From an uncultured Acidobacteriota bacterium (GTDB lineage Bacteria; Acidobacteriota; UBA6911): a DNA stretch of 64,000 nt. A model generated the notes under the pieces. The model was not told the origin of the DNA. It did not search any database and saw only the letters and a program-made list of their open reading frames with translations. Below, in pieces: positions 15,837 through 28,519 of this stretch. Position numbers and translations under genes: made by a program. The stretch spans positions 256,001-320,000 of the forward strand of contig CAWJKZ010000013.1 in assembly GCA_963843575.1 (NCBI GenBank), written 5' to 3'. The number at the start of each line of letters is the position of its first letter. Positions within the stretch are counted from its first letter, which is position 1.

Positions 15837-17216
15837 ATGCAATACCATCTCGAGAATGAGCTGTTTCAGATTGACGTCGGCCGGGAATGGATCGTGTATG
15901 CGCCCTTGAAGCGGATTGCCTTCCGGGCCAATGGACTGCTCGTCAACCTGCTCTGCGACATCCAGGACGGAGTCGCCATAGATCCAGAGAGTTGCGGCGA
16001 AGCTCTCGCGAAGCTGCAGGAATGCGGAGTCCTCGCCGCCACCCACGAAGAGTCCCCGTCCCGCGGCGTGCGTGATCTGTCCGAAGAGCCCTTCCAGCCC
16101 GTCAACCTCACGCTCTTCCTGACATCGGACTGCAACCTCGCGTGCCGGTACTGCTACGGTGACGGCGGAGCCCGGCGCGCCAGCATGCCCATGTCGGTCG
16201 GTTTGGCGGCAATCGACGTTCTCTTTCGGAACGCACGGCGGAAGGGAGCCCACAAGGTCCATCTCGGATTCCACGGGGGCGGAGAACCGACCCTGAGGAT
16301 GGACACCCTGAAGCGGCTGGTCCGGCATGCGCGCAGGCTGGCCCACGAGCACAAGATCGACCTTGCTCTCGGACTCACGTCAAACGGGGTGATGCCCGAA
16401 GAGGCAGCCAGGTGGATCGCGTGCAATATTCATCAACTCAACATCTCGCTCGACGGCCCCGGGGCCATGCAGGATTTCCAGCGGCCCATGAGAAACGGCG
16501 CCGGATCTTCCGAGAGAGTCGCCAGGACCCTTCGGATCCTGGAAGAGCAGGGAACCCCCTATCACCTCCGCGGCACCGTCACCCGTATCTCGGAGGAACG
16601 GATTCCGGAGATCGTGAGTTACCTCACCGGCAAGTTCTCTCCTGCCAGCATCCAGCTGGAACCCATGTTCAGCTCGAGTCGAGCGGAGAAGGCCGGCATT
16701 GGGAAGCCCGATGAGGGCAGCTTTGTGCGGGGGTTTCTTGCGGCGGGGGAGATTGCCAGGAAGAAAGGGATCCGCCTGCATTTTTCCGGCGACAGGTTCC
16801 CCGCGATTTCGAGCCGTTTCTGCAGCATCGGCTGGGAGACCTTTGCCGTTACCCCCGAGGGTCGCGCCACGGCGTGCTTTGAAGTGTTGCGGGAAGAGGA
16901 CTCCCGGTCGAAGATTTTTTTCTTCGGGACGTTCAGCGACGGGCACGGTTTTTCCTTTCAGCCGGACCGGATCCGACACCTGCGCGTCCTGTCCGAGACC
17001 GAGTTGCCCCACTGCCGCGACTGCTTTGCCAAGTTCCACTGCGCGGGCGATTGCCGGGCGAAAGGGCTCTACCCGGACAGCAGGGCGACGGAGGTACAGG
17101 GCACGAGTCGGTGTCGCATAATCCAGGCCCTGACGAAGGCCAGGTTGGTTGAACTCCTGGAGTCGGTGCCGCTGGTCCGACTGGAAAACGCCGGGGAGGC
17201 ACCGAACGAATGCTGA
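15837..17216 (+). CDS. Radical SAM/SPASM-domain protein 1
   Basis: CNLACRYC, FHGGGEPTL, SLDGP; SPASM-like C...GRATAC...CRDC.....CAGDC...C. Confidence 0.92.
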   Translation: MQYHLENELFQIDVGREWIVYAPLKRIAFRANGLLVNLLCDIQDGVAIDPESCGEALAKLQECGVLAATHEESPSRGVRDLSEEPFQPVNLTLFLTSDCNLACRYCYGDGGARRASMPMSVGLAAIDVLFRNARRKGAHKVHLGFHGGGEPTLRMDTLKRLVRHARRLAHEHKIDLALGLTSNGVMPEEAARWIACNIHQLNISLDGPGAMQDFQRPMRNGAGSSERVARTLRILEEQGTPYHLRGTVTRISEERIPEIVSYLTGKFSPASIQLEPMFSSSRAEKAGIGKPDEGSFVRGFLAAGEIARKKGIRLHFSGDRFPAISSRFCSIGWETFAVTPEGRATACFEVLREEDSRSKIFFFGTFSDGHGFSFQPDRIRHLRVLSETELPHCRDCFAKFHCAGDCRAKGLYPDSRATEVQGTSRCRIIQALTKARLVELLESVPLVRLENAGEAPNEC

Positions 17217-17288
17217 AGATTCCTCCGCCGGCACGAGTTGGCGGAGATAAGCCAACCCGCTCCTGGACTCGCACTTTCCCGGGTTAGA

Positions 17289-18698
17289 ATGATGGTTTCG
17301 GATGCACGCTACATCTACGCTATCCCCATCTCGGGGAAGCACCTCGTCTATGCCCCGCTAAAAAAGCTGGCAGCCCTGGTAAATGGGAAGGCCGTTGCCT
17401 CGCTTGGCGGGTGGCTCCGGGATGACGCGGGGGGAAAACAGCCGATTGCCGGGCTGGAGCCTCTGTGCGAAGGGGTGGAGGAGCCTGACGGGTACATGCC
17501 GGAAATGAAGACCGGCCCGATTTCCCCCGCTTTTCTGGGTATCATCCCGTCGCGCTCGTGCAACCTCGCCTGTTCGTACTGCAGTTTCGGGGCTGCGCAC
17601 GCGCCGCGCGAGCAGATGAACCCCCTCGTGGCGGCTTCGGCCGTCGAGTGGATGGCGGAGAATTGTGCGCAGCGCGGGGAAACGAGGCTCGAGGTTCACT
17701 TTTTTGGCGGTGAACCTCTGGTCGCCGCCGACGTCGTCGAGGTTGTCGTCCACAAGGCCCGGGCGATGGCCGAGAAACTCGGGCTGGTCCCGCACCTGGA
17801 GCTCAGTACCAACGGCCTATTCGATCAGGACTGGGCCGGTTTCGTGGGTGACTACTTCGACACGGTCGTGCTTTCGCTGGACGGGCCCGCCGACATCCAC
17901 GACCGGCAAAGGCCGAGGCCGGGAGGCGGGGGTAGCTTCGAGGCGGTCGTCGCCACCGCACGTTGTCTGGCCCAGTCGCAGGCCGAACTCTGTCTGCGCG
18001 GATGCATCAGTTCGGGCAGCGTCGCCCGCATGGAGGAGATCGCGGGCTGGTTTTGCGAAGCCTTCGATCCCAAGGCCGTCAATTTCGAGACGCTGCAACC
18101 CACCGTCCGCTCCGACAGCGCGGGCCTGCGACCGCCCGATCCCTATGAATTTGCCCGGCACTTCATCCGAGCGGAGAAGGTCGCACGGGAGGCGGGAGTC
18201 ACAACGGTCCATGCCTCGGCTGAAATCGGCAAGAACAGATTCAGCTTCTGCCCGGTCGGGACCGACACCCTGGTCGTCTCCCCGGACGGTCGCGTCAGCA
18301 GCTGTTACCTCCCCGAGCGTGAGTGGAAGGCCCGGGGGCTGGATTTCCATGTCGGCAGCGTCGGGCGGCGACGCACGTTCGGCATCGACCTCGAACACAT
18401 CGAAGCGCTGCGCGATTGCGTGACGACCGAGCCGGATCGGTGCGCGCGATGTTTCTGCCGCTGGACCTGCTCCGGGGGGTGCCGCGTCAACCACTCCTAT
18501 CCGGGCTGTTCACGCCATTACGACGACTTCTGCATTCAGACGCGGATCATCACGGCGTGCAGGCTCCTGCTGTCGCTTGGCCTGCCGGACCTCGTCGAGC
18601 CGCTGATCAGCCGTCGCGAAGACATGCAGTTGCTGGCGTTAAAAACCTCGGATCGGCTTGACGCTTGGGAGAACCAGGATGCCGGGCGTGACCTCTGA
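17289..18698 (+). CDS. Radical SAM/SPASM-domain protein 2 (paralog of 1; start approximate)
   Basis: CNLACSYC, FFGGEPL, SLDGP; CPVG...GRVSSC...CARC.....CSGGC...C; N-terminal VYAPLK motif shared with protein 1. Confidence 0.92.
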   Translation: MMVSDARYIYAIPISGKHLVYAPLKKLAALVNGKAVASLGGWLRDDAGGKQPIAGLEPLCEGVEEPDGYMPEMKTGPISPAFLGIIPSRSCNLACSYCSFGAAHAPREQMNPLVAASAVEWMAENCAQRGETRLEVHFFGGEPLVAADVVEVVVHKARAMAEKLGLVPHLELSTNGLFDQDWAGFVGDYFDTVVLSLDGPADIHDRQRPRPGGGGSFEAVVATARCLAQSQAELCLRGCISSGSVARMEEIAGWFCEAFDPKAVNFETLQPTVRSDSAGLRPPDPYEFARHFIRAEKVAREAGVTTVHASAEIGKNRFSFCPVGTDTLVVSPDGRVSSCYLPEREWKARGLDFHVGSVGRRRTFGIDLEHIEALRDCVTTEPDRCARCFCRWTCSGGCRVNHSYPGCSRHYDDFCIQTRIITACRLLLSLGLPDLVEPLISRREDMQLLALKTSDRLDAWENQDAGRDL

Positions 18699-18978
18699 GC
18701 ACGGGGCGAGCTTTCGTGTCGCTGCGCACGTGAGCTGGGCACCGGAGAGCTGTGGGATCCGTGTCGTCGACAGGCAGACGAACGGGGTCCGCGTTCTCGA
18801 TTACCCACGGGCTGCCGTCTGGGACTGCGTCGCCCGCGGGAGGACCTATGTCCAGGCACTACGATTGCTGTGCGCGCTGTATCCGGTCGACGAGTCCGGC
18901 GCGGAGCGCATGGTCCTGCAATGCCTCTCGGAGTGGATGAAGTGGGGCCTCGTGACACGCGTGAACGAGCATGACTAA
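18679..18978 (+). CDS. Stand-alone PqqD-like RiPP recognition element (RRE)
   Basis: 99 aa with beta strands followed by AAVWD...LLCALY.V......V...L......GLV; overlaps both neighbouring genes. Confidence 0.65.
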   Translation: MPGVTSEHGASFRVAAHVSWAPESCGIRVVDRQTNGVRVLDYPRAAVWDCVARGRTYVQALRLLCALYPVDESGAERMVLQCLSEWMKWGLVTRVNEHD

Positions 18979-20932
18979 CCTCTCCATCGTCGCGGACTGC
19001 AATCTGAATTGCCCGTACTGCTTTTCACGGTCCGCCTACCGCGGGGAGGCTGCCGTGCGCAGTATGCCGGCGCGCCGTTTCGATCTCATGCTGGAAATCC
19101 TGGTTCGGTCGGGACAGGACCGGGTGCGTCTGTTGGGCGGGGAGCCCACGCTTCATGCCGAGTTCCCCTCGCTCGCGGGCCAGGTGGTTGCCCGAGGCCT
19201 CGGTTTGCTCGTCTTTTCAAACGGATCGATCCCCGAATCCTCGCTGCGGGTTCTCGAGGAAATCCCCGGCCTGAGCGTCATGGTCAACATCGCGGCGACC
19301 ATGGGGCAGAACGGCGAGTTGCCGCCGCGCCAGCGCGAGGTACTCGGACGACTGCGCGCCCGTGTGTCCCTGGCTTTCACGATCTGCTCTCCCAACCCGC
19401 CGCTCGATCGCCTGCTGAACCTGGTCGAGGAATACGGGCTGGACAAGAGCGTCTGCCTGGGCCTGGCTCACGCCTGTCTCGCCGGTGGCAACAGGTTCCT
19501 CGATCCCATGCATTATCCGCGCGTGGGCGAGCAGATCGTCCTGTTCGCCCTTCGTGCGCGCCAGGAACGGGTGGCGCTCAATTTCGACTGCGGCTTCGTG
19601 CCCTGCATGTTTCCCTCTGAGAGCCGTGAAGTACTGGGCAAAGCTTTGGAGGAGATCGGAACCCATTGCGGCCCGATCCCCGATATCCTGCCCGATGGGG
19701 ACGCCGTCGCGTGCTATCCGCTTGCCCCTCTCGGCCGGCTGCCCGTCTCGCGCGAAACCACCACCGGAGACCTGAGGAAGGCCTTCGCACCTGTTCTGGA
19801 ACCTTACCGGCAGGTGGGCATATACCGGAAGTGCTCCGCGTGTGACTGGTCGAGAGAGGGAAAGTGCGCGGGAGGCTGTCTGGCCGACGCGATGAGACGT
19901 CTGCGCCAAGGCGGGACGGTATTCCAGGTCCCGGCACCTGCCAGAGACCGGATCACCACCTCTCGCGGCGGCGACCCGACGGCTCCGGACGCCACGGATG
20001 GTTCCGAAACCACAGCACGGGCAAAGTGGGTGGTCCCCTACATCGATCAGCCCCTCTCGTTCTGGGATGAGATCGCTCAGGATTTCCGGGACGACATCAA
20101 GGAAGTCTATTTCCCCCTTCCGGGCGACCTGCTGGGTTCGGGGCGGCCTCCGCAGCCCGCACGGCATCTGGAGGATTTCCTCGCTCGCTCGCTCCTGGGC
20201 CGCTCGGTGCTGATAAACCCCATAACCCTGCCCGGGCCGGTGGGGCAGCTCGCCCCGGCCATAATCGAACGACTTCGCGAACTCACCGGGCGATTTCAGG
20301 TGTCCAGTGTTACCGTCTCGAATCCCGAACTGGCCGAGCGGATCCGCGAGGCTCTCCCCGGCCTCTCGATCACCGCATCCGTCCTGATGGACATCGCTCA
20401 TCCAAGACAGGTCCTGATGCTGCACGGCGTTCTGGATGGACTGGTGCCATCGGGCCGGATCATGCGAAATCTCCCGGCCCTGCGCGAACTCCGCGCGGCT
20501 TTTCGAGGCCGCATCCGGCTGATCGTCAACGAGTCGTGCATTCCGGATTGTCCGTATCGCACACAGCATTTTTACGAGATGGCGCGCTGCCGCGTCGTCC
20601 CTCCGGGGACGCCCTGCGCCGCGTTGCTGGAGAGGACTCCCTGGCTTCGACTCACCGGCACCTGGGTCCTGCCGCAGCACCTGCACTTCTACCGGGGGGT
20701 CTACGACGAGTTGAAACTGGCAGGAAGGGTCACGCTGCGCAACCCCGGCGACTACGTGCGTGTCCTGCGCGCGTACACCCGTGGAGATCCCCTCTCCCCG
20801 CACGAAATCGGCGGAGGTCCGGCATCGGTGCTGGACAAGATGCTTGTCAGCGAGGCTCTTTTTGCCCAGACCCTGAGTTGTTCGAAACAGTGCCACGACT
20901 GTCGGATTTGCCGTGACTACTATGATCGGTAA
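18971..20932 (+). CDS. Radical SAM/SPASM domain fused to a C-terminal U32-family (UbiU/UbiV/TrhP/RlhA-like) domain
   Basis: N-terminal CNLNCPYC, LLGGEPTLH and CSAC......CAGGC. From ~20024: EVYFP...GSGR, ITASV, LIVNESCIPDCPYR..H, LKLAGR, CxxxCxxCxxC. Confidence 0.82.
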   Translation: MTNLSIVADCNLNCPYCFSRSAYRGEAAVRSMPARRFDLMLEILVRSGQDRVRLLGGEPTLHAEFPSLAGQVVARGLGLLVFSNGSIPESSLRVLEEIPGLSVMVNIAATMGQNGELPPRQREVLGRLRARVSLAFTICSPNPPLDRLLNLVEEYGLDKSVCLGLAHACLAGGNRFLDPMHYPRVGEQIVLFALRARQERVALNFDCGFVPCMFPSESREVLGKALEEIGTHCGPIPDILPDGDAVACYPLAPLGRLPVSRETTTGDLRKAFAPVLEPYRQVGIYRKCSACDWSREGKCAGGCLADAMRRLRQGGTVFQVPAPARDRITTSRGGDPTAPDATDGSETTARAKWVVPYIDQPLSFWDEIAQDFRDDIKEVYFPLPGDLLGSGRPPQPARHLEDFLARSLLGRSVLINPITLPGPVGQLAPAIIERLRELTGRFQVSSVTVSNPELAERIREALPGLSITASVLMDIAHPRQVLMLHGVLDGLVPSGRIMRNLPALRELRAAFRGRIRLIVNESCIPDCPYRTQHFYEMARCRVVPPGTPCAALLERTPWLRLTGTWVLPQHLHFYRGVYDELKLAGRVTLRNPGDYVRVLRAYTRGDPLSPHEIGGGPASVLDKMLVSEALFAQTLSCSKQCHDCRICRDYYDR

Positions 20933-23684
20933 CCCCATGGAAGAGGCGGAGCGGATACACCCGACCCTGCCTATATTCCTGGTGAACGCGGGCGAACGCC
21001 CCGTCATATACACTCCAGGACACCTGGCCGTGATCGGTCACCGGGACGCACACATGCTCCGCCGGGCGTGGGGAAACGGCGAGCCCCCTCCGGACAACTC
21101 GGTTGCCTTCGCCGTTGTCCCGTGGATCGAGATGCGGTCTTGTGAAGCCTGGTCCGAATGGGAGCGGCTGCTGAACGAACCTTTCGCCCCGGAGTGCCTG
21201 ACCATTTATCCGGGGAATCAATGCAACCTTGCCTGCCCATATTGCTACGCGGGGGGCGCGGCCGGCCGGCAAGCGGGCCGCACGATCGCCCCGGCCGCGG
21301 TTGAGTCCGCGGCCCGGCTCGTCGCAAGGAACTGCGCCGACAAGCGCAAGGCATTTCAACTCGTTCTCCACGGCGGGGGCGAGCCGACGCTTCACTGGGA
21401 CCTGGTCGAGAGGATAGTCCTGATCACACGCCGCGTCGCGGACGAGATCGGTGCCGAGTGGCTGGGGTATATCGCGACCAATGGGGTGCTTTCGGAGACC
21501 AGGGCGATCTGGCTCGCGCGGAATTTCACGGTCGGGCTTTCGTGCGACGGTCCACCGGAAATTCAGGACCGGCAACGGCCTCTGGCGGACGGGTCCCCGT
21601 CATCCGGCGTCGTGGAACGCACGGCCCGTCTCGTCGTGGACACCGGTGGGCGCCTCGAGGTGCGCGCGACCATAACGCCGGCTGCGATTCCCCGTCAACG
21701 CGAGATAGTCGAATACCTGCACCACAAGTTGGGAACCCGGCACATGCATTTCGAGCCGCTGTACCGCGCGTGGACGGCTGGGAGCGACGGGGCGTTCTCG
21801 TTGGATGACGTCGAGCCGTTTGCAGAGCACTTCCGCGCCGCCCAGGACGCCGCCAAAAGCCTGGGGGCCGAGCTTTTCCTGTCGGGTGTGCGGGTGCACG
21901 AGATCCACGGCCCGTATTGCGATTTAATCCGGCAGGTGTTGCGGCTCACCCCAGACGGCACCGCCACCGCCTGCTTTCTCGACACCGGCGGCGATGCCGG
22001 ACCGGAACGCGCGTGCAGGATCGGTGCGATGGACGAATCCACCGGCGAGTTCCTCCTGGACCGCGAGAGGATTGCACTGCACCGAATGGCTGTCGGGCGG
22101 ATCCCGCCGGGCTGCCACGGATGCCCGAATGTTTTCCACTGTGCCCGCGACTGCCCCGAGACCTGTTACGCCCGGGCGCAGGACGAACTCGGGTCTGCCG
22201 CTGGGGACGCGCCGGGCGGCCGCCGGGGTGTTCGTTGCCGGATAGCACAGCGCCTGTTCCTTTCGTGGATCCGGGATGCGGCCTTCGGCACCCGCGCATC
22301 GTCCACCGCCGAGTCGCGGGCGCGTTTCTCCACCCACGGGTGGACCACGTTGCTGTCCCAGTTGCAGCGCGCCGCTCCACGCATCGACGCGGACGCGATC
22401 GCTAGGCAATGGAGCGCATTGGGGCGGGGATATCGGGTCGGTGAACGCCGGCCGCCCATGCCGATATGGGCGAAGAGGGGTTTCGAGGACGGGGGGCCCG
22501 AGGCATGGCGCAAATTGGACGCGCAAAACAGCAACGCAACGGAAACCGCCCCTCTCTCGATATATGTACACATTCCCTTCTGCGACCGAAGGTGCGGCTA
22601 TTGCGATTGCCGCTCCGTCCTCATGCCCCGGCGCAATAGAATCGAAGAATCGTCCTACTGTCGTGTCCTGCTGGAGGAAATCGAGGCCTGGTCGAAAAAC
22701 GAACATCTATCCAGGCGGCCAGTGACGACCGTCCACTTCGGCGGCGGCACGCCGAACTATCTCGGCTTCGATCTCTTTGACCGGATCGTCGACGAGCTGC
22801 GGAGGCGTTTCAACACCGTTCGCGAAACGGAGTGGGCGCTCGAAACCACCGGATCGCTCCTGACCCGTGCGCACCTGGCACAGCTGAAGGATGCGGGTTT
22901 CACCCGGCTCCACGTGGGGGTGCAGACGCTGGAAGACGGACTGCGCCGTGCCATTGGGAGACGACAAAGCGGAGCGGGCATACTCGAGGGAATCGCCCTG
23001 GCCATCGAAATGGGTTTCGTGTCGTCGGTCGACGTCATCTACGGTCTCCCGGGCCAGGAACTACCTGGGTTCCTTGACTCCCTGGTGCGGCTCGCCGAGA
23101 GCGGCGCCCAGGGTTTCTCGCTCTACCGGCTGAACGTCTCGGCGCGGAACCTCCGGTTCATTCAGAAACGGATGACGCGGGGACGGGATCCTCTCCACGA
23201 TTACGCCCTTCTGCAGGCCGGTGAACAGCTGTTGCGCGCATCCGGGTACCGGAAGAACCATTTCACGCACTATGCCCTGGCGGCGGACCGGAACTTGTAT
23301 TTCACGCACCCGCAACGCGGGGAAGACCTCCTGGCGCTGGGCGCGAGCGCGGACGGGTTTTTCGGCCACTATCACTACAGGCACATGGATTACAGCGGCT
23401 ACGTCGGCCCCGGGGCCGGGGTTTTTTGCAGTTTGCAGGGGGGATTGCCGGAGACCGAGCGGGAGAAGAGGATTCGACCCGTCACGGCCTCACTGATGGG
23501 AGCCGGCATCAAGGCCGACTTGCTGCGGCGGTTCGGGCTGCAGGACCTGCTCGAGGAATGGAAGGAGTCCGCCCTGCTCGAGCCGGGTTCCGATCCCGGC
23601 ACCTTTGCCCTCACAGCCAACGGCTCGTGGTTTATCGATCGGATGATCGATGACGCGGAGTCTGTCCCGGTTTCCGGGGGCTGA
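20922..23684 (+). CDS. Double radical SAM protein: SPASM-type domain fused to a HemN-like domain
   Basis: Domain 1 has CNLACPYC, HGGGEPTL and CHGC.....CARDC. Domain 2 has IYVHIPFCDRRCGYC, HFGGGTP, GVQT and DVIYGLPGQ. Confidence 0.88.
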   Translation: MIGNPMEEAERIHPTLPIFLVNAGERPVIYTPGHLAVIGHRDAHMLRRAWGNGEPPPDNSVAFAVVPWIEMRSCEAWSEWERLLNEPFAPECLTIYPGNQCNLACPYCYAGGAAGRQAGRTIAPAAVESAARLVARNCADKRKAFQLVLHGGGEPTLHWDLVERIVLITRRVADEIGAEWLGYIATNGVLSETRAIWLARNFTVGLSCDGPPEIQDRQRPLADGSPSSGVVERTARLVVDTGGRLEVRATITPAAIPRQREIVEYLHHKLGTRHMHFEPLYRAWTAGSDGAFSLDDVEPFAEHFRAAQDAAKSLGAELFLSGVRVHEIHGPYCDLIRQVLRLTPDGTATACFLDTGGDAGPERACRIGAMDESTGEFLLDRERIALHRMAVGRIPPGCHGCPNVFHCARDCPETCYARAQDELGSAAGDAPGGRRGVRCRIAQRLFLSWIRDAAFGTRASSTAESRARFSTHGWTTLLSQLQRAAPRIDADAIARQWSALGRGYRVGERRPPMPIWAKRGFEDGGPEAWRKLDAQNSNATETAPLSIYVHIPFCDRRCGYCDCRSVLMPRRNRIEESSYCRVLLEEIEAWSKNEHLSRRPVTTVHFGGGTPNYLGFDLFDRIVDELRRRFNTVRETEWALETTGSLLTRAHLAQLKDAGFTRLHVGVQTLEDGLRRAIGRRQSGAGILEGIALAIEMGFVSSVDVIYGLPGQELPGFLDSLVRLAESGAQGFSLYRLNVSARNLRFIQKRMTRGRDPLHDYALLQAGEQLLRASGYRKNHFTHYALAADRNLYFTHPQRGEDLLALGASADGFFGHYHYRHMDYSGYVGPGAGVFCSLQGGLPETEREKRIRPVTASLMGAGIKADLLRRFGLQDLLEEWKESALLEPGSDPGTFALTANGSWFIDRMIDDAESVPVSGG

Positions 23685-23717
23685 GGTGCCCGGGGACGCT
23701 CGCGCGTCGTTCGCCCG

Positions 23718-24878
23718 CTATATCGTTTCGCAGCGCACCCATTTCCCCGGATCCCGGATGGAAAGCGGCGCTGTCCTCGCCAGCCTCACTATCGTGTGCC
23801 CCGGGTGCTTGCGGCGCACTTCCGCGAGTGTATCCGGGTGGAATAAGAAGTAATCCCGCGCATCCCTGAAGGCGCAGCAACTTTCCAGCAATCCCTCGTC
23901 CAGAAATTTCTCGTGCTCGGATTGCACGACGGGCGCGAGGCTGCGGCGCCGGCCTCGCAGCTGCCTCAGCTTGCTCTGCAGCGAGCAGTCGTTTACCGAA
24001 ATGCCCAGTTCGTCGTCCTGGACCCGCCGCATCACCTCAAAGGTCAGAGCACGGCTGTCTCGGGAGATGCTGCCACGGTGGCCGTCCGGGGTGACAAAGT
24101 CCCTCCGGGGCCCGGGCAGCGCGGCCGATCTGCTGCCTGCCTCGAACATCAGTTCGTGGAGGTTCAGGAACCTCACCCCCGCCGCGCTCCAGGGCGCCAG
24201 GCAGCCGAGGAGCTTTTCCGCGTGCTCGGGTATCGCCGGGATCTCCACGGTCACATTGGGAATGAGCGAGCCCGCGGTCGCCAGGTTTCGCATGACGCCC
24301 GGGTGGTCGTACCCGGTGGCGGCCATGTTGAAGCGGATCTCGTCGATGCCGAGTTCTCCCAGATACCGGAGCTTCCCTGCATCGGCGCGGAGTCCGTTCG
24401 TGTAGACCCAGAAATATTTCTCGGGATAGCGGGTCTTGAACCAGGCGACCCAGTCGAACAGCCCCTCCGGGTCCGCCAACGGCTCGCCGCCGGAAAAGCT
24501 GATCCCGGTAATACGGGTGCGGGCGTGATTTCCCGCGATCTGTTCGGGGGTCTCGCCGAATGCCGAACCGCGGTAGTCCTTCCGGAGATCCCGCGGGCTG
24601 CAACAGAAGGGACACTCGAGGTTGCAGCTTGTGCTCGTGAATATGCAGTCCCAGGTGCCTTCTTTGCAGGCCTCGCACCCGGGCGACAGCTCGCCCACGT
24701 GAAGGGTCTCCCCCTGCGCCGCGATCCGAACTCCAGGGATGTCCCTGGCGGCTCCGGCCACCTGTTCGTCCCAGGTCTGCCGAAGATCGTCGAAGCCGGT
24801 TTTATCGTGATTCCGAGAATGCAGCTGCCGCTGCACGGTCTCCAGAAACGGGGGCGAAGTTCTATCCTGGATCGACAT
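23718..24878 (-). CDS. Radical SAM protein (non-SPASM) with additional N-terminal CxxC
   Basis: LSPGCEAC..G...C.F....CNLECPFCC, FSGGEPL, YTNG, DEIRFN, VEIPAIP, NLHEL. Confidence 0.88.
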   Translation of the reverse strand: MSIQDRTSPPFLETVQRQLHSRNHDKTGFDDLRQTWDEQVAGAARDIPGVRIAAQGETLHVGELSPGCEACKEGTWDCIFTSTSCNLECPFCCSPRDLRKDYRGSAFGETPEQIAGNHARTRITGISFSGGEPLADPEGLFDWVAWFKTRYPEKYFWVYTNGLRADAGKLRYLGELGIDEIRFNMAATGYDHPGVMRNLATAGSLIPNVTVEIPAIPEHAEKLLGCLAPWSAAGVRFLNLHELMFEAGSRSAALPGPRRDFVTPDGHRGSISRDSRALTFEVMRRVQDDELGISVNDCSLQSKLRQLRGRRRSLAPVVQSEHEKFLDEGLLESCCAFRDARDYFLFHPDTLAEVRRKHPGHTIVRLARTAPLSIRDPGKWVRCETI

Positions 24879-24973
24879 AGGACGCGTGGTTCACCGGTAT
24901 GGGTCCCAGGAGTGCCGATGGGCCGGGCGCCCGCCACCTGCCGCAGCCCTGGTCTCCGGACGGCTTGCAGTCC

Positions 24974-25408
24974 TCAGGCTGGGTGATTGGACAGAGCGGC
25001 CCGCGCGCCGGTTTTCGCGAGGCTGTAGCAGGGGGTCATGCGGGCGATCTTCAGGTATCCCTGGCTTACCAGTGCCTCGACAAACTCGGTTACGTCGGCG
25101 GCGACAACCTCGTGTCCGAGGCTGAAATGCCGGCAGAGGATTTCCGCCACCCCATGGCAGTTCCTCCTGCCGTCGATCGCGTGCCAGATCGCGGCACCCG
25201 CTTCGTTCAGCGAGATGGACTCGCCCGAGCAGCTGGTGAGCACGGTCTCCCCTGCGACAACGGTGATGCGGACCTTGCCCGCGTGCACCGGCACCGGCGA
25301 TTTCTCCACCGGCAGAGGTCTTTCCCCGGCCGTCGCAGTTCGCGGTGCGGACAAAGCGGATCCGGCGGCGGACATCATTGCTGAAACGATGAAATGTCTG
25401 CGATTCAT
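24974..25408 (-). CDS. PqqD-family RRE protein with putative Tat signal peptide
   Basis: LNEAGAAIWHAIDG.....VAEILCRHF......DVTEFVEALVSQGYL PqqD pattern; N-terminus MNRRHFIV plus hydrophobic stretch; GAGG SD. Confidence 0.82.
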   Translation of the reverse strand: MNRRHFIVSAMMSAAGSALSAPRTATAGERPLPVEKSPVPVHAGKVRITVVAGETVLTSCSGESISLNEAGAAIWHAIDGRRNCHGVAEILCRHFSLGHEVVAADVTEFVEALVSQGYLKIARMTPCYSLAKTGARAALSNHPA

Positions 25409-25450
25409 GATCGGTGCCTCGCGAGCAAGTCCGGATCCCAGGATTCGCTC

Positions 25451-25777
25451 CTAGTTGGGATACCAGTAATGAGAATCCGACCCGCAACCGACGTACGAAA
25501 CGCACGAGCATTCCGTGTCGCAGGTGCAGACCTGGTTGCAAGTGCAGACCTGGTTGCACGTGCAGGTGGTTTCGCCCACCGCGTGACAGGCGCAGACGGA
25601 GTCACAGCAGCACTGGCCCGAGGCCTCCTGTGCCGGCGTCGGGGCGGCCTGGCGTTTGAACCCCGGTTTCTGATAACTTTCCTGCCCCCCGAGCTTAACC
25701 AGTCGGTAAAGTTGCGGCTCTTCCCCGCCCGGTTCCGGGGTGCGCTTCAGTCGGAACCGATTGTTTTTTTCTTCCAT
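25451..25777 (-). CDS. Putative RiPP precursor, 108 aa, Cys-rich CxC-repeat core with HYWYPN C-terminus
   Basis: GAAGG SD; hydrophilic Cys-free 55-aa leader; 14 Cys in the last 53 aa; directly upstream of an RRE and a radical SAM gene. Confidence 0.82.
   Translation of the reverse strand: MEEKNNRFRLKRTPEPGGEEPQLYRLVKLGGQESYQKPGFKRQAAPTPAQEASGQCCCDSVCACHAVGETTCTCNQVCTCNQVCTCDTECSCVSYVGCGSDSHYWYPN
25524..25565. repeat. 18-bp tandem repeat encoding CTCNQV units of the precursor
   Basis: GTGCAGACCTGGTTGCAA GTGCAGACCTGGTTGCAC GTGCAG. Confidence 0.9.
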
Positions 25778-25822
25778 GGAATGACCTTCGTATGAATTCC
25801 GTCCGCCGATTGGCGACACGAC

Positions 25823-28519
25823 TCAGTTCAGCGTTCTTACCAGGCGTAACCCCACATAGCCGTAACGGTCGTCGGACCGCTGGTAGCCGTAAGAGTAGCG
25901 ATGGGCCAGGCGCATCAGGTTGGCATCGCCAACATAGGGATTCGCCGAGCCCCCACGCGCCATCCTGTTACTGCTCGCGCCGGATGTCCCGAGATAATCG
26001 GTCACGGTCCCGGATGGATAGTAACCATCCCGATCCCAGCACCACTCCTCGGCGTTGCCGTGGACATCCTTGAGGTTCCAGGCGTTGGCCAGCTTCAGGC
26101 CGACCGGGTGGAGCGAGCCGCCGGAATTAGCGCAGAACCAGGCCACCGACTCCAGGGCCGGCAGCGCGCCTGCGGTGCAGCTGGTCTTCGTGGTGCTGTT
26201 GAATTTGGGCTCCTCGATGTGGAAGGGGCCCGAGCTGCCGGCACGGGCGAAGTACTCCCACTCACCCTCCGAGGGTAACCTGTAGCCGTTGGCGCTGAAG
26301 TTGCAGTAGATCGGATCGGACAGATAATTCGTCGCGTCGATCGGGGTGCGAAAATCGGCGTCCTTGTAGTAGCAACGCGTCAGACCGTTGCGCGCCGAGA
26401 GCAGGTTGGCGAAGAGGATCGCCTCGAACCACTTCACGCCGTCCACGGGCTCGGACATCGAGTGCGAGGTATCCAAAGGGTCGGCAGGGAGCGAGGGTTG
26501 TGCCGACCGCAAGTCCGCCCACATTTGCTGCGTTACCTCGGTCTCCATCACCGCGAAGCTCTTCGACAGGATGTGGGTGAACTGCGCCTCGTAGGAACTG
26601 TGGCCTATCTCCCCGCTGGGCGATCCCTGGGTGAATCCCGCCGACCCCGTGGCCGGGACAAACCGCATGTTGCCCACGATCCCATCAACGCTGTGCAGCC
26701 CTCCTCCCAGCCCTTCGGCGACCTTGACGGCCGTTATCGTCTGGCCCGACCTCGGGCAGTTGGTGGAACTGATCGTCAGGGTGCCCGTCATATGGGTCGA
26801 GTCTGTGAATGAGCCGCTGAAACTCAGGCCGCCCGAGCGCAGGTCGATCCGACTGGCCGATGTCGGGAGGCTGCCGATGGAGATCTTGCAGTTGTTGCAG
26901 TCGGTGGCGGAGACCTTGTAGGTGTGGACGAAATCGCGGATCGAACCGGAACTGTCCACGTTGAACGAAACGTCCGTCCCCTTCCAGCTTCCCCGGGTGG
27001 TCTGCGGGGTGGCGTCCGTCGTCGTGTGTGGCGGCACCCCGGTGTATTGCAGGCCGGTCGCCGTCATTTCCATTCTCAAGACGGTCATGCAGATGTTGGC
27101 CCCCGCCTCGACGGCCAGCGAGCCGACAAAGCCGTCCGGTATGCCGGAAAAAATCCCGCCCGCGCCGCAGAAGAACAGGGCGCTCTGTCCCGTGTATGGA
27201 ATCGTCTGCTGCTGGACCTGATTGCCCGCGGAGTCGTAGAGGGTGAACTTAACCTGAAACCCCGTGCCGGCGTAGGAGACGAAAGCCAGCCCCGTGTTCA
27301 CCATCGCCGATTTCTCGACTGGCAGCGTGAATGACCGGCCTTCGGGACTGTGGGCGATTCCGATCGAGTCGATCAGTTTGTTGCTGAACACATAGTTGTA
27401 GAAGAACGCCGTGGCTATCGAGCCCATCGGACTGCTGTCGCTCTGGATCGCGAGATAGCCGGAACGCACCTGGCTGTCGCCGACAAGGACGTATCTAGCC
27501 GTCGCCTTCGGTCCCAACGAAATGTCGAACGATGACGAACCGGTCATGTTGATGCTGTTCAACGTCCAGCCGCTGGACCAGGACTGGTCGTTCGCCCGGC
27601 GGAGCGTGGCCCGCCCCGCCCATATCGAGCTCGATTCATTCGAAACGATCAGGACCGTCTGGTACTCGCCCCCGAGGGCCAGCTGGGCGTAGGTAAATCG
27701 AGGGTCCGCCGACTGCGCGGCGGGGTGCGGCGGGAAACTCGTGTATTGCACGCCGTCGGGCGTGTTCTCCATGCGCAGGACCGTCATGCACAAGTTCTGG
27801 TCGGACTCGACGACCAGCGAACCGACGAACCCGTCGGCTATGCCCGGGAAGATGCCGCCCCCCGGGCCGGTGAAGAAGCGTGCGCTTTGCCCGTCGTAGT
27901 TGAGCGTCACCTGCTGGACCTGGCGGCCGACCCCGTCGAAGAGCGTGAATTTTATCGGGAAGCCTGTCTTTACGGAGGATACGTAAGCCAGCCCGGTGTT
28001 CACGCTGGCCGATTTCTCGGCCGCGAACGTGAATGCGCGGCCTTCATAGCTCGGGGGCACCCCGATCGAGTCGATCAGCTGATTCCCGACGATGTAATTG
28101 TAGAAAAATGCCGTGGCGATGTTGTTAATCGACGTGCTGCTCTGGATCGTCAAGTATCCGGAACGGGTGGTGTCGTCGCCGGCGAGGACGAACTTGCGGG
28201 TCGCCTTTGGGCCGAGCGAAATATCGAACGACGTTGAGCCCGTCTTCGCCGCGCCGTTCAGGGTCCATGCGGATGTCCACGACTGATCGTTTCCCTTTCG
28301 GAGGTTGGCCGTGCCGGACCAGGCCGTGCTCGACTCGTTGGAAACGACAAGGACGGTCTGGTACGACCCTCCCAGCGCCAGTTGGGCGTAGGTCAGACCG
28401 GCAGAAGTCTGGGCCTGATTGGTGTCGATCGCAAGACAAGCCAGTAGAATGGCGGACAGAATCCCCAGCGCTCTATATGCCACGGTACTCCTTTCCAGCC
28501 AGCGGACCGCAGCCATCAC
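25823..28519 (-). CDS. Secreted protein with two tandem ~225-aa repeats and a C-terminal FGE-sulfatase (SUMF1-like) domain
   Basis: Signal-like N-terminus; repeats TYAQLALGG...QYT..PPH at ~27724-28396 and ~27027-27697; ETEVT, YRLPSEGEWEY.ARAG, DVHGNAEEWCWD, RGGS, GLRLVR. Confidence 0.88.
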   Translation of the reverse strand: MMAAVRWLERSTVAYRALGILSAILLACLAIDTNQAQTSAGLTYAQLALGGSYQTVLVVSNESSTAWSGTANLRKGNDQSWTSAWTLNGAAKTGSTSFDISLGPKATRKFVLAGDDTTRSGYLTIQSSTSINNIATAFFYNYIVGNQLIDSIGVPPSYEGRAFTFAAEKSASVNTGLAYVSSVKTGFPIKFTLFDGVGRQVQQVTLNYDGQSARFFTGPGGGIFPGIADGFVGSLVVESDQNLCMTVLRMENTPDGVQYTSFPPHPAAQSADPRFTYAQLALGGEYQTVLIVSNESSSIWAGRATLRRANDQSWSSGWTLNSINMTGSSSFDISLGPKATARYVLVGDSQVRSGYLAIQSDSSPMGSIATAFFYNYVFSNKLIDSIGIAHSPEGRSFTLPVEKSAMVNTGLAFVSYAGTGFQVKFTLYDSAGNQVQQQTIPYTGQSALFFCGAGGIFSGIPDGFVGSLAVEAGANICMTVLRMEMTATGLQYTGVPPHTTTDATPQTTRGSWKGTDVSFNVDSSGSIRDFVHTYKVSATDCNNCKISIGSLPTSASRIDLRSGGLSFSGSFTDSTHMTGTLTISSTNCPRSGQTITAVKVAEGLGGGLHSVDGIVGNMRFVPATGSAGFTQGSPSGEIGHSSYEAQFTHILSKSFAVMETEVTQQMWADLRSAQPSLPADPLDTSHSMSEPVDGVKWFEAILFANLLSARNGLTRCYYKDADFRTPIDATNYLSDPIYCNFSANGYRLPSEGEWEYFARAGSSGPFHIEEPKFNSTTKTSCTAGALPALESVAWFCANSGGSLHPVGLKLANAWNLKDVHGNAEEWCWDRDGYYPSGTVTDYLGTSGASSNRMARGGSANPYVGDANLMRLAHRYSYGYQRSDDRYGYVGLRLVRTLN

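Follow-up and report, generated by a model that had tools for sequence, protein, structure and literature searches.

Several described pathways built around radical S-adenosylmethionine (rSAM) enzymes act on peptides that ribosomes make and that are modified after translation (RiPPs) and offer the closest comparisons for the locus reported here. In the SCIFF/thermocellin system (CteA/CteB), a leader precedes a Cys-rich core, and the maturase CteB, which joins Cys to Thr, combines an N-terminal RiPP recognition element (RRE) region with a seven-Cys SPASM domain. Freyrasin (PapA/PapB) and the gamma subunit of QHNDH (QhpC/QhpD) feature repeated Cys-to-Asp/Glu thioethers made by SPASM enzymes; the thioether spacing in PapA is Cys-x3-Asp, and QhpC combines thioether staples with a Trp-derived (Cys-Trp) quinone. 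PQQ and mycofactocin (PqqA/D/E; MftA/B/C) rely on a small peptide whose aromatic residues at or near its C-terminus are conserved, a PqqD-type chaperone and an rSAM/SPASM enzyme, and the triceptide motif is aromatic-X-X. The streptococcal enzyme NxxcB links Cys to the Asn beta-carbon and tolerates Asp (passages of PMC9389541), while in Methanococcus voltae the rSAM/SPASM enzyme CrpC forms ranthionine-type links on CrpA, whose N-terminus is leader-like and whose C-terminal region, where the links are placed, is repetitive and Cys-rich (passages of PMC13692751). According to passages of PMC10352776 and PMC13692751, the thioether synthases QhpD, CteB, Tte1186 and CrpC share a seven-Cys SPASM domain, and for CrpC an open iron is predicted to which a Cys of the substrate could bind (PMC13692751). 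Here we analyse a 64,000-nucleotide stretch of DNA from an uncultured Acidobacteriota bacterium (contig CAWJKZ010000013.1, positions 256,001 to 320,000), hereafter the window, in which a gene at 25451-25777 on the minus strand encodes a 108-residue peptide with a Cys-free leader, a repeated CxC zone and an aromatic HYWYPN tail.

We consider it probable, taking the explanation as a whole, that this gene encodes a genuine ribosomal precursor, the single substrate in its genome of a widespread, uncharacterised multi-rSAM maturation cassette. Co-occurrence across genomes supports a two-zone reading in which the CxC zone belongs with a CteB-like enzyme and the (H)YWYPN tail with a separate module. 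A preliminary description of this DNA had suggested that two substrate zones could explain the presence of several maturases, and the co-occurrence data agree with that idea, since the CxC repeats track one SPASM clade and YWYPN tracks a four-gene module. Its expectation that a precursor-type peptide of this kind would be tied to rSAM and RRE genes was likewise borne out by homologs linked to such genes in many phyla.

The precursor frame, defined by the open reading frame (ORF) and its homologs, runs on the minus strand from an ATG at 25777 to a stop codon at 25453-25451. Residues 1-55 (25613-25777), delimited as leader in a three-peptide alignment, read MEEKNNRFRLKRTPEPGGEEPQLYRLVKLGGQESYQKPGFKRQAAPTPAQEASGQ and contain no Cys. 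The core, residues 56-108, reads CCCDSV CACHAV GETT CTCNQV CTCNQV CTCDTE CSCVSY VGC GSDS HYWYPN; its CxC zone (residues 56-98, 25484-25612) holds six CxC hexads and a lone Cys, 14 Cys in all, and its C-terminal tail HYWYPN occupies residues 103-108 (25454-25471). Every detail of leader, hexads, Cys count and tail given in the preliminary description was confirmed from the ORF translation. A Shine-Dalgarno-like GAAGG (25785-25789, minus strand) lies 7 nt 5' of the ATG, an assignment of consensus type. Starting instead at a GTG at 25819 would give 122 aa; we judge this unlikely because both homologs start at the position equivalent to the ATG.

The frame stands out from its surroundings. With 13 Cys in 40 aa it is the densest Cys frame in the window, where the six other frames listed at seven or more reach at most eight, and as the sole frame at this density it is more than chance. 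It is also the only frame ending in YW[YF]P[NT] in the 6.68-Mb, 27-contig genome. Another frame with CxC-hexad pairs (G000 contig C19, 333126-333707, minus strand; 194 aa) is a low-complexity succession of C/F/S/L runs and looks like a non-coding artefact. In an index of 5.8 billion proteins, the closest relative, and the sole close one, was a 112-aa metagenome protein with 62% identity (E 5e-38), an equal number of units and an HYWYPN end. Among 40 related genomes, one from the same class and a different family (G030) encodes a 44%-identical peptide that shares the leader motifs and CxC units and has a Tyr-rich tail, and three more (G002, G027 and G021) contain CxC repeats ending in HYWHPN or HYWYPT in open frames of 523, 541 and 353 aa. 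The alignment of the window, metagenome and G030 peptides has 35 invariant columns; the kept leader residues include N6, F8, R9, L10, an EEPQLYRLV motif and YQKPGF.

The preliminary description also held that core length can change by slippage, a claim that survives in part. Tandem Repeats Finder reports an 18-bp repeat of 2.6 copies with 92% matches at 25520-25565 (minus strand), encoding CTCNQV CTCNQV CTC; the two CTCNQV units agree at 17 of 18 bp, the single differing base being synonymous, and nearly all the 125 substrates collected below have between 3 and 11 CxC units. Near-identical contigs of one soil run (151-nt pieces at low depth, 99%+ identical) carry the repeat without an indel, and the closest homolog has the same unit number. 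Two wetland runs, also of low depth and short pieces, contain relatives with 4 nt in place of the 43 nt at 25471-25515, which corresponds to a shorter core in another organism.

By Pfam and NCBIfam scans, the precursor lies in an 11-gene block that comprises two convergent operons, flanked by a NUDIX gene and polA, and includes five rSAM proteins with six rSAM domains, two PqqD-type proteins and a protein with an FGE-sulfatase domain. A gene for a 144-aa PqqD-type RRE protein (24974-25408, minus strand; Pfam PqqD, E 3.7e-12) begins 42 nt downstream of the precursor and the five rSAM proteins are encoded within 10 kb, so that leader, core, maturases and RRE appear together in the layout of a RiPP precursor locus. 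The same precursor/PqqD/rSAM arrangement is present in G030, where the order is FGE-sulfatase protein, SPASM enzyme, precursor, PqqD and four further rSAM genes (two of B12 type); thus, the link between peptide, PqqD, rSAM and FGE-domain genes is conserved between two families. No other candidate substrate was found in the window or the genome.

The CxC zone is linked to one enzyme of the block, a 459-aa rSAM/SPASM protein (15837-17216, plus strand). Scanning one genome per species with the three-peptide alignment yielded eight loci, which span Verrucomicrobiota, Bacteroidota, Polyangiaceae, Lachnospiraceae and Leptospirales, among others. At all seven loci tested, six of these together with the locus of the G030 peptide (L009), a full-length homolog of the 459-aa enzyme with 29-48% identity adjoined the CxC ORF. 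Approached from the enzyme side, an alignment of orthologs retrieved 451 relatives among 598 pattern matches; CxC-repeat ORFs meeting a strict pattern occurred at 12 of the best 80 of these 451, and a looser look found 4 more among 19 remaining loci. Altogether, almost all CxC-repeat substrates that we found, in many phyla, have an ortholog of this enzyme as a neighbour. Relatives of the enzyme also neighbour Cys-rich substrates with other units, namely PCxCD-x-x-x-P repeats, CDxxCD runs or a short CC-rich peptide (L038 5148-5948, L044 7310-7563 and L027 7358-7600, all plus strand), and the clade appears to serve several repeat types.

Compiling 594 CxC units from the 125 substrates, we found a modal spacing of 6, Thr or Ser at position 2 in 67%, Val, Asn or Asp at position 4 in 87% and Val at position 6 in 48%. 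These statistics make Thr/Ser at position 2 or Asp/Asn at position 4 the candidate acceptors. Every hexad shows an N/D-x-x-C spacing (NQVC, DSVC, DTEC), which is the only likeness to the NxxcA/NxxcB beta-thioether system of streptococci; NxxcB makes a single link in a short peptide, and among the NCBIfam matches listed for these enzymes none was to an NxxcB-family model. PapA, by comparison, has a Cys-x3-Asp spacing that differs from the one seen here.

Several lines of comparison place the 459-aa enzyme near known thioether synthases. An alignment of eight sequences shows the CxxxCxxC Cys (C99, C103, C106) as invariant together with the SPASM Cys C329, C347, C393, C396, C402, C406 and C426, so that the enzyme carries both the CxxxCxxC motif and the seven-Cys SPASM pattern, with an open iron left on AuxI, that marks thioether-forming enzymes. 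Its best solved relative is CteB (5wgg, E 2e-26, residues 56-410), and its best NCBIfam models are the SCIFF maturase, which ranks first, the nif11-type maturase and PapB, all under cut-off. Against the ranthisynthase models it scored 123.6 of 425 bits for the SCIFF maturase, 112.5 of 340 for PapB and 82.0 of 453 for QhpD. Judged by these scores, the enzyme is CteB-like at the superfamily level only. The peptide itself did not match the SCIFF precursor model of NCBIfam and, unlike SCIFF, the present system has CxC hexads, an aromatic tail, 4-5 further rSAM enzymes without counterpart and many substrates that are large proteins. CrpA is the nearest published analogy for these large substrates, many members here being proteins rather than short peptides; however, the 459-aa enzyme scores only 58.4 bits against the cut-off of 525 for CrpC (TIGR04463), and CrpA, as described in passages of PMC13692751, lacks a YWYPN tail, has repeats of 17 residues that contain C-x-x-Q/D and is encoded in a cluster with one rSAM enzyme. 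PapB and QhpD models are among the best matches, but their scores lie under cut-off, and a QhpG-type flavoprotein was not recognised in the cluster by Pfam and NCBIfam scans. The first zone would work like a ranthipeptide or sactipeptide pathway. No curated NCBIfam membership threshold that we applied was reached. We class the system with the rSAM-matured Cys-rich peptides and proteins, as a broad, unnamed, multi-rSAM member.

The tail was examined separately with a scan that is blind to Cys and enzymes, using a DNA pattern for HYWYPN followed by T-R-R in the same genome collection, which returned at least 118 loci. Homologs were called at these loci by tblastn at E 1e-5 or better within the 8 kb or less that was fetched. 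In the first 80 loci, 86 matches had a true stop, and 72 of these 86 had at least four Cys in their last 60 residues. Among the matches listed for 118 loci, the tail was seen in 89, of which 80 combined it with at least three CxC in the last 60 residues and 9 had fewer than three; 5 further loci had only an unrelated CxC-rich frame, and 24 had no such ORF and look like chance matches. The tail-bearing loci listed belong to at least 13 named phyla, with 53 of 87 in Chloroflexota and 11 of 87 in Acidobacteriota. A homolog of a cassette rSAM enzyme was present in 70 of the 80 CxC-tail loci compared with 1 of the 24 chance loci, and a gene of the tail-associated module in 66 of the 80 (both among the matches listed).

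This tail module occupies 17238-23684 and consists of four plus-strand genes: a 486-aa rSAM/SPASM enzyme (17238-18698); a small 106-aa PqqD-like protein (18658-18978; Pfam PqqD E 4.9e-4, below cut-off); a 653-aa fusion of an N-terminal rSAM half with a C-terminal U32-peptidase-like half (18971-20932, the C half at 19988-20929); and a 923-aa fusion of an rSAM/SPASM half (residues ~14-470) with a HemN/ChuW-like rSAM half (~512-913; 20913-23684). Gene by gene, the 80 CxC-tail loci listed contain homologs of the 459-aa enzyme in 54 cases, the 486-aa enzyme in 37, the rSAM and C halves of the 653-aa enzyme in 39 and 14, the N and C halves of the 923-aa fusion in 37 and 28, the small PqqD in 11 and a 386-aa rSAM protein in 10. 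The last of these, encoded between the module and the PqqD gene of the window (23718-24878, minus strand), has no SPASM match and no close characterised relative that we found; its homologs, with 30-61% identity, occurred in 11 tail-scan loci among the matches listed, 10 of which had both CxC repeats and tail. The gene counts therefore indicate that the whole cassette of the window, the 386-aa rSAM protein included (at 61% identity or less), is a recurrent unit. Paralogous SPASM classes separated cleanly in a FastTree phylogeny of 165 rows, in which 37 rows of the 486-aa type formed one clade (support 99), 34 rows with the N half of the 923-aa fusion another (support 99) and 8 generic SPASM proteins an outgroup (support 96), the remaining rows being of the 459-aa type.

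Loci ascertained by the peptide or the 459-aa enzyme gave the same association: a tail-module gene was present at 7 of 8 loci with CxC repeats and a YW-type tail, at 1 of 16 CxC loci with other tails (L009) and at none of 9 without a CxC ORF. Tail types among the substrates include (H/T)YWYP(N/T) and C-x-C-[AV]-P-V-H, among others. The gene most tightly tied to the tail is the rSAM-U32 fusion, and the two halves of the 923-aa fusion occur as separate genes at some loci.

Two recurrent genes accompany the tail outside the window. A conserved protein of ~150 aa with an RRxF motif occurs at 41 of the 87 tail-bearing loci listed (for example L168 953-1408, minus strand, L189 1959-2432, L158 5456-5914 and L171 870-1331, the last three on the plus strand); it has no Pfam match and no homolog in the genome of the window, and its candidacy as a relative of the 144-aa PqqD was discarded at a non-significant hhalign probability of 0.2%. 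A protein of ~275 aa starting VVISWWSNCL, likewise with no Pfam match, recurs at nine tail-bearing loci listed, including L144 4217-5038 (plus strand), L155 5981-6805 (plus strand), L105 49-1134 (minus strand) and L168 1401-2288 (minus strand).

It is conceivable, if rather unlikely, that all rSAM enzymes act on the Cys zone to give several thioether topologies, with HYWYPN remaining unmodified as a C-terminal motif through which the extra enzymes dock or recognise the peptide. Like a binding handle, the tail hardly varies and always sits at the extreme C-terminus, and two of the extra enzymes fall in a thioether-type SPASM neighbourhood, the best models of the 486-aa enzyme being SCIFF, nif11 and PapB. 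Against this stand four tail substrates (L143, L160, L184 and L203) that have 0-1 Cys in their last 60 residues and nevertheless are each encoded next to a gene homologous to the rSAM half of the 653-aa enzyme. L143 and L203 have the U32-like C half too; further module genes are both halves of the 923-aa fusion in L143 and the 486-aa type, accompanied by the 386-aa type, in L203. No convincing 459-aa-type enzyme was found at any of the four, L143 having only a 24% partial match. Three of these substrates are fusions of a PqqD domain to HYWYPN, 147-155 aa in length (L143 2217-2675 and L203 4472-4915, plus strand; L184 5069-5536, minus strand), in which a linker KP..[EQ][EQ]HE..T.[IV]TAGT is followed by Ser/Gly residues and recognition element and substrate share one chain; Pfam confirmed the PqqD domain for L143 and L203, and L160 is a 58-aa peptide. 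In the Cys-poor substrates the target must be a non-Cys one, although the Ser/Gly-rich linker could serve as such. Tail-only loci of this kind are, at the level of co-occurrence, what the two-zone idea of the preliminary description predicts. HemN-like and U32-like domains, moreover, are not thioether-type catalysts.

The tail-module domains suggest what such a target might undergo. The C half of the 923-aa fusion scores 164.2 of 400 bits for ChuW/HutW, 138.7 of 325 for HemN and 132 of 205 for HemW, a clear superfamily likeness with no equivalog; class C (HemN-like) rSAM enzymes methylate sp2 carbons. Its N half weakly matches DynA, YhhB and FxsB (58-64 bits versus cut-offs of 370-450). The triceptide models XyeB, GrrM, FxsB and YhhB gave the three SPASM-type proteins 41-59 bits at best, versus cut-offs of 310-450, and the tripeptide contexts YWY, WYP and YPN that the tail shares with triceptides, darobactin and dynobactin amount to a trivial resemblance for aromatic-rich tails.

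No piece of the system is better conserved than the C half of the 653-aa enzyme, whose alignment, with 15 sequences drawn from several phyla, has a mean column identity of 66% and invariant Cys at alignment columns 184, 188, 210, 298, 302, 305 and 308. Compared directly with PF01136 it gave E 0.02 and 14.6 bits versus a cut-off of 22.4, and Pfam Peptidase_U32 matched below threshold in 10 of the 15 members (best E 2.8e-4). A profile of the C half searched against 1.84 billion representatives pointed to a large family, with 1,451 relatives reaching E 0.001, 525 reaching 1e-10 and 70 reaching 1e-30, and of ten distant stand-alone relatives seven passed the U32 cut-off. Three close relatives carry the JGI name 'collagenase-like PrtC family protease', with PF01136 recorded for one; in source databases the rSAM-U32 family goes by 'radical SAM protein', 'hypothetical' or 'PrtC-like' only. 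Through this indirect link, we take the C half to be a divergent U32-superfamily domain. Characterised U32 members UbiU and UbiV carry out oxygen-independent aromatic hydroxylation (passages of PMC6747719 and PMC10990095), and by analogy we infer that the C half may do the same.

Across the family, substrates take two forms, leader peptides of ~90-190 aa and C-terminal tails of proteins of 250-1270 aa, the latter joined through a conserved motif YTLPCGSPIPPGAVCxCNCV. Pfam scans of eight large carriers identified a WD40 propeller in seven and an SH3_3 domain in one, and most carriers of core plus tail are twin-arginine-signal WD40 proteins of up to 1,272 aa. Their N-termini, read by eye, show an acidic stretch, E-P-Q-V-F-A-V, W-K-L-S-R-R-D-F-L, a hydrophobic stretch and, in many cases, a Cys, so that a leader-like motif precedes a twin-arginine-type signal; a leader-like motif followed by RR within 30 aa was present in 63 of 105 complete substrate frames. 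The window peptide has EEPQLYRLV at the matching place, without a signal. The shared EEPQ[VL][YF] motif serves as a lead only and is not statistically secure. An Anaerolineales contig (L139 1830-7974, minus strand) carries a tandem array of five paralogs with twin-arginine signals, all of which end in CxC units and HYWYPN; one paralog was confirmed as WD40 by Pfam, and one cassette gene only was present in the fetched 8 kb.

Export signals also occur on the PqqD side. The 144-aa PqqD starts MNRRHFIVSAMMSAAGSALSA, a twin-arginine-like signal with MNRRHFIV and a hydrophobic stretch, and its G030 homolog (L009 11871-12539, minus strand) starts MQRRHFIRASLGMALGAL, again of twin-arginine type. By eye, the 144-aa PqqD and the large carriers alike show RR-x-F-[LI] followed by a hydrophobic stretch. 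To our knowledge an RRE with an export signal is unusual, and its presence suggests co-export with the peptide.

Taken together, we propose that the leader would be bound by one or more RREs, that the CteB-like enzyme would staple the repeat zone with Cys thioethers, with Thr/Ser at position 2 or Asp/Asn at position 4 as likely acceptors, and that the tail module would then alter the aromatic end by crosslinking, by C-methylation through the HemN-like half or by oxygen-independent hydroxylation through the U32-like domain. A complex prediction for the 144-aa PqqD with leader residues 1-56 scored 0.15 relative to a mark of 0.32 and counts neither way. The finished product probably acts outside the cytoplasm, because a twin-arginine-type signal is present on the PqqD and a Sec-type one on the FGE-domain protein, and because the majority of carriers are WD40 proteins with a twin-arginine signal. 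More speculatively, the signal-bearing PqqD could escort the peptide, and RRE binding beside a signal could delay export until maturation is complete.

A number of observations count against the precursor-and-cassette explanation. The same-genus genome G001 (81% complete) has no precursor homolog. A distance of ~8 kb separates the CteB-like gene of the window, which belongs to the convergent operon, from the precursor, whereas the two are adjacent in most other loci, and Pfam and NCBIfam scans recognised no protease or transporter in the block (15837-28519). All block enzymes score far under curated NCBIfam cut-offs, as with the 123.6 bits for the SCIFF maturase, and no reaction can be transferred by equivalence. 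Ten of the 80 CxC-tail loci have no cassette gene within the fetched region. The association of tail and module is also imperfect, since L014, with the tail VYWLPCV, has the CteB-like enzyme only and no tail-module gene, while L009, whose Tyr-rich tail is not YWYPN, has a homolog of the rSAM-U32 N half yet of no other module gene. Three contigs appear twice among the loci (L023/L098, L041/L099 and L021/L146) and several loci share a contig or metagenome-assembled genome, so the counts overstate independence. For the U32 assignment, a direct profile search of the PDB with the C half gave no match, and hhalign of the C half with two U32 proteins reached a probability of 27% only. Finally, a leader hidden Markov model built from 58 distinct carrier leader segments ranked the window peptide 11th of 108,977 genome frames, at E 37.

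The export signals and the U32-like domain raise a second alternative, that the tail gives rise to a peptide- or protein-bound aromatic redox cofactor comparable to PQQ, mycofactocin or the Cys-Trp quinone of QHNDH, with the stapled CxC zone as a rigid scaffold; this we also regard as unlikely. The aromatic C-terminal residues are invariant and the partners are of PqqD type, including PqqD fused to the tail, features that liken the second zone to PQQ and mycofactocin. The rSAM domain is fused to a domain whose relatives UbiU/UbiV are aromatic hydroxylases, the carriers are twin-arginine-signal proteins, and no protease or exporter was recognised in the cluster. The twin-arginine route serves proteins that fold and take up cofactors before export. 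In its fullest form, to which we would assign the same low probability, HYWYPN would be the precursor of a new bound aromatic cofactor made without oxygen by a hydroxylase-type rSAM-U32 fusion, a SPASM crosslinker and a HemN-type methylase on the stapled CxC scaffold, and carried out of the cell by twin-arginine-signal WD40 proteins; in this genome a free peptide would be delivered instead, with the signal-bearing PqqD as a possible escort. Maturation may gate export because the RRE-binding leader motif directly precedes the twin-arginine signal. However, the support for a cofactor is purely architectural and the U32 relation is remote, we know of no WD40 propellers that are redox enzymes, and the loci share no conserved partner dehydrogenase; the unmatched gene clusters that recur there could be assigned to no family. 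Unlike PQQ and mycofactocin loci, these have no PqqB/C/F or MftD/E-type gene, their scores lie under cut-off and the tail sits mostly on large exported proteins.

That the product is an ordinary secreted antimicrobial ranthipeptide or sactipeptide, that is, a bacteriocin, seems to us distinctly improbable. Leader-core architecture, RRE and a CteB-like synthase are what such a locus would contain, but Pfam and NCBIfam scans of the cluster identified no transporter, immunity gene or leader protease, and core plus tail sit mostly on WD40 or SH3 proteins of 250-1270 aa, in up to five tandem paralogs. Such an appended core does not match a diffusible toxin, and the prevalence of large twin-arginine-signal WD40 carriers, which the preliminary description did not mention, weakens any simple reading as a secreted small natural product.

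Still less probable is a metallothionein-like or Fe-S/metal-binding peptide with free Cys whose rSAM neighbours have another substrate, an alternative that the preliminary description had raised. CxC spacing is typical of metal-binding peptides. CrpA, itself an rSAM-modified Cys-rich protein, is suspected of a metal role (passages of PMC13692751). The family-model part of this alternative found no backing: the precursor matched no Pfam or NCBIfam family at E 0.01, the metallothionein models held there included, and the CxC regions of nine relatives matched no family model at E 1. With no other candidate substrate at hand, and with the linkage between CxC substrate and CteB-like enzyme holding across many phyla, the rSAM genes are poorly explained as bystanders. 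A chance open frame can be dismissed. Spurious ORFs are common in GC-rich DNA, with 158 of 40 aa or longer counted in 18 kb, but the idea is already contradicted by conservation of the protein (62% and 44% identity, the Cys pattern being identical), as it is by the kept synteny and a tail motif shared by at least 13 named phyla.

Immediately upstream of the precursor, the block ends in a gene for an 898-aa protein (25823-28519, minus strand) with a Sec-like signal, two internal repeats of ~230 aa (~ residues 40-265 and 265-500) and a C-terminal FGE-sulfatase domain (Pfam PF03781, E 4.6e-27). Its repeats have paralogs elsewhere in the genome (contigs C23, C22 and C25). Apart from a 32% partial match in L187, the protein is shared only with G030, where it also lies beside the precursor cluster, and it may have been added in this lineage alone or be a neighbour that is unrelated to the system.

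In searches of the open literature, neither the tail nor the repeat nor the cassette proved to be described, and the supplementary precursor lists of PMC10288494 and PMC13692751 (in the latter, Supplemental Data set 1, rSAM-associated Cys-rich proteins) may hold members. Two published systems were considered and set aside on the parts of their descriptions at hand, the FxSxx peptide-processing system (PMC7159879), which differs in peptide and enzyme, and Bacteroidales BGC8 (PMC10352776), which differs in precursor.

If the precursor-and-cassette reading holds, this locus represents an undescribed, phylogenetically broad rSAM maturation system in which a single substrate receives two separable chemistries. 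It would also blur the line between RiPPs and post-translational modification of proteins, since a 108-aa peptide shares its core and tail with WD40 proteins as long as 1,272 aa. Oxygen-independent hydroxylation is known for ubiquinone and RNA bases, and the rSAM-U32 fusion could extend it to peptide side chains. The version in the window is compact, having a single short substrate and a single cassette without paralogs elsewhere in the genome, and would be the most convenient entry point, since each enzyme's product could be read by mass spectrometry.

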